DNA from: Escherichia phage vB_EcoP_DE5
Strand: one strand, 5' to 3'
Sequence record: MW741821.1
Length of the DNA stretch: 64,000 bases
The notes beneath the pieces were generated by a model. The model did no database searches. It was not told the DNA's origin and saw only the letters and a program-made list of their open reading frames with translations. Of this stretch, positions 9,650 through 11,020 are shown in pieces (position 1 is the first letter of the stretch; every line of letters begins with the position of its first letter). The position numbers were made by a program, and so were the translations under genes.

Positions 9650-11020
9650 TTAGTTATTTGTTTCCATGTCAAAAGAGATTCCACGACCCGCTTCATCGGC
9701 AAACCGAACTGTACGGGTTTGAGGTTCTAATACTTCAGGGTTGTTAGTAATAAACTGATCAGCGAGACTTCGGCTGACAGCCTCAGCGAGTTCCTCATGA
9801 GAAGGAGTATCAAGATCGGATAGACTGCCTACCACATCTTGGGCCACACCTTCATCAGTCCACACAGCCCTAACAGGTGCGTTGATATCACCAACAGCAA
9901 AACCCTGACCAGAGAACTGACGTGCGCTAACAGTTAAGCCATTTGGTCGACCACGAGAGGGTCTAGCCATCCATCGCTCCATAGAATCACTTGTAATACC
10001 GAGAGCTTCCTCAAAAGATGTTCTACGAGTAGGGCTTACTCTTCGTGACTCTTGTGCTCTACGCATTGCAGGGGCTACAAACACCCCTTCAATTGCATTA
10101 TGTCGGTTAGGTTCTTCTTCCCTTCCAAGCAAATCTCCACCCGTGTTGGTTATTAAGTTTGTCAACCCTTCAGACCAATATGCATAAATCTGACCAGAGC
10201 CATGAACACTTGACATTAACTGAATTTCTTCGTAAGGGATTCCAAAGAATCGACTCATGTCTCGGTTAACACAATATTGAGCACTTGTTGTATCCTCAAC
10301 AAGAGCAACCTGACCTCGTTCGTTGACCAGATGACTAACTGGTTGAGGTGTAGGAAGGTATCGAGTTTGTGCCATATATTGATATGCAACAGATGGAGCG
10401 GAGAATCTTAATACCTGTGAATTAGGCCACTTCTTGTGAACATACTTGATTTCACGACTAGAGACAACCACTGGACAAGGAGAGGTCATAGCCAAATATC
10501 CATGGGGGGTCATGAACAGCTTGTCAAGAGTCATCGCACCACGGCACATCATAGGAAAATTATCCAATACCTCTTCGATAGAAGTGGGATAATTAAACAT
10601 GAATTGGATTCGAGTTCCATTCCACTGAAATTCAATAATATCAGTGAATGTTAATTGAGAAGTTCCTGTGTATGGCTCATCTGTAGCTTCAGCAAGAAGA
10701 GATGAATACTCAATATCTTGTGACTCAAGCCATTCTTTCACATTACTTTCAATCTCTCTTCCAAGAGCTTGCCAACGATCAGTTGGGACGAAAGTATTTT
10801 GAGTTCTTGGTGTTTGTCCTCTGACAATAAAGATATCAATGTCATGTGGAGCTGTGTTATTAAGCACAGCATCACGAACAGCCCCACCAGTAATGATGGG
10901 ACAGATACCGTCTGGAACTAAATTGTTGTTAATCAACTGTTCAATGAAGTGACGACCAACAGTGATATCAGGTTGTTGAGCAACCTTATCTTCAATTTGG
11001 TTAATCGGGATAACAATCAT
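9650..11020 (-). CDS. nucleotidyltransferase, CCA-adding/poly(A) polymerase head-domain family, with unknown C-terminal region
   Basis: ITGGAVRDAVL...HDIDIFIV matches the GGxVRD...DxD signature; start trimmed to MIVIPINQ Met one nt after exonuclease stop. Confidence 0.6.
   Translation of the reverse strand: MIVIPINQIEDKVAQQPDITVGRHFIEQLINNNLVPDGICPIITGGAVRDAVLNNTAPHDIDIFIVRGQTPRTQNTFVPTDRWQALGREIESNVKEWLESQDIEYSSLLAEATDEPYTGTSQLTFTDIIEFQWNGTRIQFMFNYPTSIEEVLDNFPMMCRGAMTLDKLFMTPHGYLAMTSPCPVVVSSREIKYVHKKWPNSQVLRFSAPSVAYQYMAQTRYLPTPQPVSHLVNERGQVALVEDTTSAQYCVNRDMSRFFGIPYEEIQLMSSVHGSGQIYAYWSEGLTNLITNTGGDLLGREEEPNRHNAIEGVFVAPAMRRAQESRRVSPTRRTSFEEALGITSDSMERWMARPSRGRPNGLTVSARQFSGQGFAVGDINAPVRAVWTDEGVAQDVVGSLSDLDTPSHEELAEAVSRSLADQFITNNPEVLEPQTRTVRFADEAGRGISFDMETNN

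Follow-up and report, generated by a model that had tools for sequence, protein, structure and literature searches.

The nucleotidyltransferase (NTase) gene of Escherichia phage vB_EcoP_DE5 encodes a Pol-beta-type core with a class II-type head, a conserved active site and no tRNA-specific features. It was analysed in a stretch of 64,000 nucleotides of sequence record MW741821.1, referred to here as the window. The product belongs to a network of homologous proteins; one of these is Gad2, which is predicted to be an NTase and abolishes the Gabija defence (bioRxiv 10.1101/2023.05.01.538930). The gene has a conserved position among DNA replication genes, and its product ends in a disordered tail with a conserved end. 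It is a real gene, conserved in coliphages of the phiEco32/SU10 type. A replication-linked or counter-defence enzyme is more likely than a tRNA repair enzyme, because of the lack of tRNA-specific parts, the kinship with Gad2 and the constant place among DNA replication genes. The protein may tentatively be described as a catalytically competent, template-independent Pol-beta NTase with a class II-type head, docked on a partner and having a replication-linked and Gad2-like role.

Catalytic core and disordered tail

The NTase gene (9650-11020, minus strand, as are its parts and the neighbouring genes below) consists of 456 codons and a stop, with the ATG at 11020 and the stop codon at 9650-9652. 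The ATG lies one base past the exonuclease stop codon; the NTase stop is found 9 nt ahead of the dcd start. A longer open reading frame with a GTG start extends to 11077; this start is improbable, since it would run into the upstream exonuclease gene (stop at 11022). The protein matches PHROG 12715 across its full length (1e-259), and a tblastn search with query P0086 returned next to no matches. Matches to the phiEco32 middle/late promoter consensus TAATGTATA number 19, compared to 20.8 expected, which is no enrichment, and none of them lies directly 5' of the NTase gene.

The folded catalytic core, residues 1-286 (10163-11020), is composed of a Pol-beta/class II-type head and a small helical domain. 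The open reading frame and the GGAVRD...DIDIF signature described in the earlier note are present, the latter as motif A (residues 43-64, ITGGAVRDAVLNNTAPHDIDIF, 10829-10894), and the head fold of the class II CCA/poly(A) polymerase type assigned there is borne out. Within motif A, G45, G46, R49, D50, D60, D62 and F64 are invariant among 29 diverse members, and the first six remain so although core identity to the window protein drops to ~30%. A flexible loop (residues 111-120, 10661-10690, pLDDT <50) contains Tyr117, which is 100% conserved. Gln139 (codon 10604-10606), on a beta-strand, is also invariant and has its counterpart in the invariant Gln88 of Gad2. Residues 155-159 (FPMMC, 10544-10558), with an invariant Pro156, are aligned with class II motif B (RRDxTIN) and with the FDFTVC segment of Gad2. 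The helix of residues 189-199 (REIKYVHKKWP, 10424-10456) carries the family signature [DE]190-x-x-Y193-x-x-K/R-K197, aligned with R151-x-x-K154-Y155-x-x-K158 of Gad2. A third catalytic carboxylate was sought by conservation among the 29 members; none could be assigned, and position 130, a Glu in the window protein, is variable.

The ~350 residues behind the signature had been considered to be free of recognisable motifs. About 160 of them (~127-286) are folded and complete the enzyme, and the remainder is a tail of 170 residues. The region described earlier as large and unknown is, according to structure prediction, mostly this intrinsically disordered tail, and no unknown domain is seen there. 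The tail (residues 287-456, 9653-10162) has a pLDDT <50 and a net charge of -8. Within Kuravirus it shows 79% identity, gap columns averaging 18; between genera it is practically unalignable. In many distant family members, with a total length of 274-321 aa, it is missing or far shorter. Indels are concentrated in a hypervariable zone, residues 381-415 (9776-9880), with 13-47% gaps per 10-residue block (381-420) in 14 Kuravirus orthologues. It is followed by a C-terminal peptide, residues 421-450 (DQFITNNPEVLEPQTRTVRFADEAGRGISF, 9671-9760), with a column identity of 0.91-0.94, compared to 0.92 for the catalytic core. Distant members that have a tail end in similar R-[FV]-S-F peptides. This conservation makes the peptide a candidate partner-binding motif.

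Replication module and the tRNA question

The gene directly upstream of the NTase encodes the 3'-5' exonuclease subunit of a family A DNA polymerase (11022-11579; Pfam DNA_pol_A_exo1, E 2e-8). Next to it is a T7-type primase/helicase of the DnaB type (11573-13363; Pfam DnaB_C, E 1e-10, and the annotation of the SU10 orthologue). The dCTP deaminase gene, dcd (9107-9640; Pfam DCD, E 2.7e-34), is located directly downstream. The neighbours recognised earlier were thus correct. This replication-module placement, with the exonuclease on one side, dcd on the other and the primase/helicase nearby, has its like in six other lineages. In Bruynoghevirus, Gyeongsanvirus, Phapecoctavirus, Justusliebigvirus, phage phiM6 and Vibrio phage VP506, relatives adjoin a gene for a primase, a family A polymerase or an exonuclease. 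The gene order primase/helicase, exonuclease, NTase, Dcd is retained down to ~30% identity. In small podophages, almost all early and middle genes serve DNA metabolism, which lessens the weight of synteny in these phages.

In public records, the gene goes under "nucleotidyltransferase" or "tRNA nucleotidyltransferase / poly(A) polymerase", as do hundreds of its relatives. In line with roles raised in the earlier note, the protein would act on RNA 3' ends, either as a minimal CCA-adding or repair enzyme for nuclease-damaged tRNAs, or as a poly(A)/tailing polymerase marking host RNA for decay. This is unlikely, with nevertheless several observations in its favour. Motif A is textbook class II. 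In hhalign, the alignment of the small phage NTases with E. coli Cca/PcnB spans 163 columns, with a probability of 95.6%. The phage genome contains one tRNA, the tRNA-Arg already noticed earlier, identified as tRNA-Arg(UCU) at 27469-27544, 16 kb from the NTase gene. Moreover, tRNAs are cut by OLD-family defence nucleases (cited in PMC12904381).

Against this role, the parts that read the ribose and the base are missing. Motif B (RRD), which recognises the ribose 2'-OH, is absent, and the aligned segment reads x-F-P-h-h-C, with the invariant Pro156 in place of the Asp. The residues preceding this segment vary (LDN, SRR, GR, ER or AT), and position 155-156 is Phe/Met-Pro across the family. The conserved acidic/Arg pair of motif D (EDxxR), the protein template for CTP and ATP, was not found at the equivalent positions, as defined by profile alignment and not by structural superposition. 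Beyond motif D, only the basic-aromatic helix is retained (R189..K192-Y193..K196-K197), in which Y193 falls opposite the Phe of the RxxRF helix in profile alignments. The predicted structure has no tRNA/RNA-binding body and tail domains. The disordered tail was considered as a counterpart of the basic, RNA-binding C-terminal tail of PcnB and rejected, as it is net acidic.

The profile scores also argue against an RNA enzyme. The Pfam PolyA_pol head model, proposed in the earlier note as a check, scores 20.1 bits (E 8.7e-4) over no more than residues 43-126, where the gathering cut-off is 23, and distant family members reach 13-19 bits or give no match. The family profile scores 3.9 bits on E. 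coli PcnB and 3.4 on E. coli Cca, compared to 20.3 on Gad2. A sequence-profile search of the PDB matched the 21-residue motif A alone (E 0.12). Alignment of the NTase family with a class II profile of E. coli Cca and PcnB, which with two sequences is too shallow to serve as a strong negative, gave a spurious match once and 25 columns once. The phage tRNA gene itself already encodes CCA. No tRNA genes are found near the NTase or its relatives in the eight loci scanned, from six phage lineages; the gene is always in the replication module there. The proposed repair of tRNA 3' ends is therefore unsupported, given the loss of motifs B and D, the lack of a tRNA-holding domain, the encoded CCA, the distance from tRNA genes and profile scores that favour Gad2. 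This suggests that the tRNA label on the NTase records is misleading.

Possible role at phage DNA ends and alternative explanations

In the tentative reading as a docked Pol-beta NTase, the G45-G46...D60-x-D62 centre would bind Mg2+ and a nucleoside triphosphate and move a nucleotide onto a hydroxyl group, the pocket being closed off by the short helical domain (F155-P156, [D/E]190, Y193, K197). As there is no sensor of the ribose 2'-OH and there are no base-templating residues of the CCA type, the nucleotide would be chosen by another rule. The pocket might accept dNTPs, which the loss of RRD does not prove. To our knowledge, the class II enzymes characterised all act on RNA and not on DNA, which speaks against such a role. 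The 170-residue tail would serve as a tether, with its end peptide docking the enzyme on a partner. This partner may be the phage replisome, as the NTase gene and its ~200-aa relatives are always inside a T7-type replication module. The substrate could be a 3' end that arises on a nucleic acid while the phage DNA is replicated, be it at a nick, at a primer or at the end of the genome. The benefit would then be similar to that of Gad2, with ends hidden or altered against end-sensing host nucleases, e.g., Gabija, OLD or RecBCD. Whether the enzyme is active, which nucleotide it takes, what serves as acceptor and as partner, and whether it counters host defence are matters of inference.

In its most specific form, the enzyme would be a viral "terminal transferase", tethered to the replisome and adding untemplated, possibly deoxy, nucleotides to phage DNA 3' ends, nicks or primers, thereby evading Gabija, OLD, Shedu, Lamassu and RecBCD. 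This is quite unlikely as formulated. If true, it would explain the mechanism of Gad2 and the presence of small NTases in the replication modules of phi92-like, LUZ24-like, T7-like and phiEco32-like phages, as well as part of the broad defence resistance of the Gordonclarkvirinae. A variant in which the NTase is packaged in the virion and acts on injected DNA ends was rejected, as purified SU10 virions have only the ejection proteins gp20-24 (PMC9509320); genome ends would thus not be guarded by the NTase at injection. A single NTase peptide was reported in a PEG preparation from 2014 that was not further purified, and its authors warn that early and middle proteins may persist (PMC4281155).

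Chemistry aimed at host defence, one of the roles raised in the earlier note, gains support from the kinship with Gad2 (profile matches, PHROGs and PF26128). It could also act on something other than a nucleic-acid end. A Gad2-like counter-defence enzyme might nucleotidylate (e.g., AMPylate) a protein of host defence or repair; alternatively, it might produce or use up a small nucleotide-derived molecule by which such a system is controlled. Such an acceptor has a small but real chance. It would fit the homology to Gad2, which is toxic when expressed on its own (bioRxiv 10.1101/2023.05.01.538930), and the invariant Tyr117 on its flexible loop; the tail and its conserved peptide suggest recruitment through a protein-protein contact. 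Searches of NCBIfam and PADLOC with the NTase protein, however, gave no match. Accessory anti-defence genes are mostly found in variable loci, and the constant replication-module position across many lineages is atypical of them.

The authors of the BASEL collection proposed, to explain resistance to restriction-modification (RM), a covalent modification of the DNA or the nucleotide pool in which the NTase works jointly with the adjacent dCTP deaminase. The NTase and dcd are adjacent in all Gordonclarkvirinae examined and also in distant relatives, and these phages resist RM with no modification pathway or inhibitor known for them (PMC11990801). Resistance through missing restriction sites was rejected, as EcoRI, EcoRV, EcoKI and EcoP1 sites are present at about the expected counts, so site loss does not explain it. 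The proposal is nonetheless very unlikely to describe the NTase. We know of no class II-type NTase in any DNA hypermodification pathway, and relatives of the NTase are carried by phages in which dcd is not annotated nearby. The phage ThyX (Thy1 family), seen in relatives and annotated in SU10, leads one to expect ordinary dTMP synthesis. CCWGG is strongly avoided (6 versus 73 expected), as are 13 GC-rich palindromes, which indicates a phage DNA exposed to restriction and not globally shielded. In addition, restriction profiling served to map the termini of phiEco32 (PMC9965538). A catalytically dead replisome scaffold that merely keeps the NTase fold would account for the unassignable third carboxylate, the variable E130 and the long tether with its docking peptide, which suggest a structural or adaptor role, but is highly improbable, as the strict invariance of GG, RD and DxD down to ~30% core identity, together with the pocket residues Q139, Y193 and K197, points to selection on catalysis.

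The Gordonclarkvirinae show an unusual resistance to the defence systems tested (PMC11990801), and the NTase is a conserved core gene of this common, therapeutically used and defence-resistant group of coliphages. It is also kin to a proven anti-Gabija protein. Gabija works at the ends of phage DNA, and as of 2026 the way in which Gad2 counters it had yet to be explained (PMC12904381). As the BASEL collection includes several Gordonclarkvirinae (Bas86-94) able to infect a derivative of E. coli K-12, the clade offers tractable genetics for the function of a Gad2-like NTase. Nucleotide transfer to DNA ends or to a defence protein, if borne out, would establish a new class of counter-defence by enzymes; an RNA-tailing enzyme after all would be an ordinary finding.

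Comparison with known nucleotidyltransferases

The class II enzymes (PF01743; PDB 1miv, 3aql, 3h37 and 1ou5) share with the NTase the head fold, motif A (GGxVRD...DxD) and a flexible loop after the head strands, and the basic-aromatic helix of the NTase corresponds to the RxxRFxxR that follows motif D. Unlike in these enzymes, motifs B (RRD), C and D (ED..R) are not conserved in the NTase family, the body and tail domains are missing, and the genomic setting is DNA replication instead of a tRNA role.

The closest sequence relatives outside the clade are phage NTases of ~200-330 aa (PHROGs 1614, 10174 and 7967), such as phi92 gp158, Ralstonia phage DU_RP_I gp11, PaP3-like orf27 and phiM6 gp61. 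They show the same motifs, and their genes likewise neighbour those for a primase/helicase, a family A polymerase or an exonuclease. They differ from the window protein in being shorter, in lacking the disordered tail and in keeping the Asp of the FD motif. The NTase family aligns with 13 of them at 99.5% (hhalign, E 2e-22), and the window protein matches PHROG 1614 over residues 34-155 (E 1.4e-7). The window NTase itself belongs to a separate and rare clade, with 31 cluster representatives (E<1e-10) among 1.84 billion proteins; in isolated phages, this clade is found in Gordonclarkvirinae only.

The NTase domain is homologous to that of Gad2 (Gabija anti-defence 2; Bacillus phage SPbetaL7; PF26128) at the superfamily level. 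In the PHROGs, which form an independent library, PHROG 1614 is matched by both the window protein and Gad2 (8.2e-6 for the latter), and the small phage NTases match PHROG 12715 as well as Gad2 PHROGs. Precomputed PF26128 matches exist for the identical cluster of the window protein and for most orthologues, graded "weak" for P0008. In hhalign, the small phage NTases align with the Gad2 family at 97.7% (E 1e-12), and the NTase family does so directly at 69.6% (E 4e-5, 112 columns). The link is mainly transitive via the small phage NTases, which are themselves also kin to class II enzymes (95.6%), and the direct profile match is only moderate. These relationships would be accounted for if the NTase and Gad2 both came from one group of small nucleotidyltransferases confined to phages, an origin that we propose tentatively.

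Both Gad2 and the NTase are encoded by phages, are ~400-450 aa long and begin with a Pol-beta NTase domain, and two AlphaFold models show an identical order of secondary-structure elements across this domain. Both families conserve the GG, the DxD, the strand Gln, a Cys after the F[D/P] position and the R..KY..K helix. Gad2 has GGAITS and FD where the NTase has GGAVRD and FP. No sequence similarity exists between the NTase and the C-terminal domain of Gad2, which is folded and beta-rich (~250-400, pLDDT ~90), whereas the NTase continues with helices up to residue 286 and then with its 170-aa disordered tail. The gad2 gene belongs to the anti-Gabija locus that a temperate Bacillus phage carries, in contrast to the NTase gene with its place in the replication module.

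The nucleotidyltransferase gene and its surroundings

The window phage is a phiEco32/SU10-type coliphage (genus Kuravirus, subfamily Gordonclarkvirinae), and its bases 9000-12000 share 95% identity with Shigella phage SGF2 and Escherichia phage SU10. The nucleotidyltransferase ORF (minus strand, ATG at 11020, stop at 9650-9652) encodes 456 aa, and its product shows 100% identity to a protein of Escherichia phage vB_EcoP_DE5. The exonuclease gene upstream stops one base before this ATG, and a longer GTG-started frame, which would overlap that gene, is unlikely to be in use. The neighbors named in the earlier note were confirmed by Pfam: a dCTP deaminase (9107-9640), a family A 3'-5' exonuclease (11022-11579) and a DnaB-type primase/helicase (11573-13363). 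The order primase/helicase - exonuclease - nucleotidyltransferase - dCTP deaminase - ... - Dps-like - thioredoxin - ThyX is shared by the three genera of Gordonclarkvirinae and by relatives from metagenomes with about 30% identity. Mass spectrometry detected the protein in a phage preparation that had not been purified (PMC4281155). It is absent from purified SU10 virions (PMC9509320) and thus does not act at the instant of injection. No functional study of the gene was found in the literature searched; the gene, its "nucleotidyltransferase" label and a weak Gad2 match in precomputed tables are already public, and the finding is no surprise in itself.

Several other features of the region were observed. 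Three tandem paralogous small genes (minus strand; 8491-8700, 8700-8909 and 8909-9106; 69, 69 and 65 aa), sharing K3, W5, T27-R28, A31-R32, K35 and a terminal Tyr, lie directly downstream of dcd; SU10 has four counterparts (gp069-072). Some relatives, namely Bas89 and a metagenomic Kuravirus, carry an HNH homing-endonuclease gene directly after dcd (4334-4843 in locus L002, 4862-5371 in L019); the window has none there. Dps/ferritin-like (7533-8144) and thioredoxin (7008-7283) genes follow downstream on the minus strand in the same operon-like array. Host thioredoxin is the processivity factor of T7 polymerase, and a phage-encoded thioredoxin beside a T7-type replisome is notable.

Beside the replication module, a minus-strand cluster (~13583-20984) comprises gamma-glutamyl cyclotransferase (GGACT, 13583-14002), ATP-grasp-like (14704-15897), glutamine amidotransferase (GATase)-like (16341-18032), amidoligase (18451-19554) and COOH-NH2 ligase-like (20178-20984) genes, with a further ORF at 19551-20168. 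The amidoligase/ATP-grasp cluster is kept in the distant relative L005, and Vibrio phage VP506 has the matching order GATase .. ATP-grasp .. nucleotidyltransferase .. primase/helicase. No minus-strand ORF of at least 40 aa was found at 18033-18450, a stretch of roughly 400 nt that precedes the GATase-like ORF; in SU10 the orthologue of that ORF has about 110 additional N-terminal codons. A broken gene, an error in the sequence (GenBank flags the matching record as UNVERIFIED) or a non-coding element could account for this interval. The GC skew changes sign at ~37000-38000, which fits the divergent early/middle (minus) and late (plus) gene clusters described for phiEco32-like phages.

Active site, class II enzymes and the C-terminal tail

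Family members were collected with two word-indexed searches and with an exhaustive HMMER scan that covered 1.84 billion cluster representatives. The family is rare, with 44 representatives at E<=1e-3 and 31 at E<=1e-10; the isolated phages that encode a member are all Gordonclarkvirinae infecting Escherichia and Shigella. In 29 members, with core identities to the window protein down to about 30%, G45, G46, R49, D50, D60, D62, F64, Y117, I128, Q139, P156, Y193 and K197 are invariant.

The earlier note had proposed a nucleotidyltransferase of the CCA-adding/poly(A)-polymerase type, here called class II. In profile alignments, F155-P156-M-M-C159 stands opposite class II motif B (RRD-x-T-I-N): the ribose-reading Asp is an invariant Pro, and the two Arg positions vary. 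The helix R189-E-I-K-Y193-V-H-K-K197-W-P is opposite the class II RxxRFxxR helix after motif D, whereas the motif D base template, Glu-Asp...Arg, is absent. Order in the predicted model stops at residue 286 and many members have just 274-321 aa, which means that the tRNA-holding body and tail domains are missing. With the family HMM, E. coli PcnB and Cca reach only 3.9 and 3.4 bits, respectively. With these losses, the class II role is not borne out. Nor is repair of tRNA 3' ends, as the sole tRNA gene of the phage, a tRNA-Arg (anticodon UCU; 27469-27544, minus), already has the 3' CCA in its sequence and is 16 kb distant; none of the eight loci of family members or small relatives scanned has a tRNA gene. 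Loss of the ribose sensor and of the base template speaks, at the level of sequence, for substrate rules that differ from those of CCA-adding enzymes. RNA 3'-end repair or tailing is considered unlikely.

The large C-terminal region reported previously is only partly what it seemed: the protein is predicted to be folded to residue 286, and the remainder resembles a tether. This tail (287-456) has a net charge of -8 with a mildly basic middle. Within Kuravirus the core shows 87% identity and zero indels, against 79% and a mean of 18 gap columns in the tail; between genera the tail is essentially unalignable, its length ranging from nothing to about 200 residues. Indels concentrate at residues 381-415 (13-47% gaps across blocks 381-420). 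Residues 421-450 (DQFITNNPEVLEPQTRTVRFADEAGRGISF) reach a column identity of 0.91-0.94, compared with 0.92 in the catalytic core, and similar R-[FV]-S-F peptides close off distant members that bear tails. Judged from alignments and model, the tail is built like a flexible tether with a candidate docking peptide rather than an unknown enzymatic domain.

Proposed role and alternatives

The analysis shows the protein's fold, how its residues are conserved, the network of its homologues and its synteny; substrate, partner and role are inferred. The enzyme would add nucleotides, without a template, to nucleic-acid 3' ends arising from phage DNA replication; it would be associated with the replisome through its tether and docking peptide, and end addition may pay off in counter-defence. 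Such an addition is favored by the kept active site, the lost ribose sensor and base template, and the ties to the replisome and Gad2. The tether and the fixed place in a T7-type replication module point to the replisome; the kinship to Gad2, a Gabija anti-defence protein, and the end-directed action of Gabija suggest the pay-off. Taken as a whole, this proposal is tentative, with somewhat less than an even chance of being right.

The ~200-aa phage nucleotidyltransferases of the PHROG 1614 group are also found near replication genes: between exonuclease and endonuclease in a polymerase/SSB block (Bruynoghevirus), between primase and DNA polymerase I (a Ralstonia autographivirus), abutting a family A polymerase (Sinorhizobium phage phiM6), upstream of primase-helicase and polymerase (VP506) and just after DNA polymerase I in the 145-150-kb myoviruses Phapecoctavirus and Justusliebigvirus. 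The linkage counts for little in small podophages, where nearly all middle genes concern DNA; that in the large myoviruses is more telling.

Gad2-style activity, either on a host protein (nucleotidylation) or in small-molecule chemistry, would draw on the kinship to Gad2 and is as unlikely as RNA 3'-end repair or tailing. DNA modification together with Dcd, an idea of the BASEL authors, is quite improbable, being weakened by the presence of ThyX, by restriction mapping of phiEco32 (PMC9965538) and by strong site avoidance. In the whole window, CCWGG occurs 6 times (73 expected), 13 GC-rich palindromic hexamers have zero copies, and GATC occurs 140 times (238 expected). EcoRI (10), EcoRV (32), EcoKI (6) and EcoP1 (102) sites remain, so loss of those sites does not explain the restriction-modification resistance reported for these phages. 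The metal and triphosphate site is strictly conserved, which speaks for an active transferase; a dead scaffold is hardly credible.

Relationship to Gad2

Gad2, a protein of 400 aa from Bacillus phage SPbetaL7, counters Gabija defence and has a nucleotidyltransferase domain predicted by AlphaFold; its knockout renders the phage Gabija-sensitive, a co-expressed homologue cancels Gabija, and SPbetaL7 Gad2 expressed alone is toxic (bioRxiv 10.1101/2023.05.01.538930). According to a 2026 review, its mechanism is still unknown and Gabija acts at phage DNA ends without RecBCD activity (PMC12904381). In the literature searched, no paper pairing Gabija with Kuravirus, Gordonclarkvirinae or phiEco32 was found. 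Through the window gene, the role of Gad2-like enzymes becomes directly testable in phages infecting E. coli K-12.

Precomputed Pfam matches to PF26128, named "Gad2" in the contig look-up, cover the window protein's cluster and most orthologues, the match on one Kuravirus orthologue being marked weak. For comparison, the gad2 sequence was taken from OQ921347.1 and its family collected. Gad2 reaches 20.3 bits with the Kuravirus-family HMM, compared with 3-4 bits for Cca and PcnB. By hhalign, the window family matches the Gad2 family at 69.6% probability (E 4e-5, 112 columns) and thirteen of the ~200-aa enzymes at 99.5% (E 2e-22). These small enzymes in turn match the Gad2 family (97.7%, E 1e-12) and Cca/PcnB (95.6%, E 1e-8), while Gad2 against Cca/PcnB gives 0.9%. 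In an independent library, PHROG 1614 is matched by both the window protein (1.4e-7) and Gad2 (8.2e-6), and the small enzymes match PHROG 12715, that of the window protein, as well as the Gad2 PHROGs.

Both families have in common the GG, the DxD, a strand Gln, a Cys and the R..KY..K helix. The model of a protein 98% identical to Gad2 predicts the same helix/strand order through the nucleotidyltransferase domain, but after it a well-folded, beta-rich C-terminal domain with no counterpart in the window protein. We conclude that the window protein and Gad2 are not orthologues but separate branches of one phage-specific nucleotidyltransferase group, with the ~200-aa enzymes as its hub, either descended from or sister to the class II head domain.
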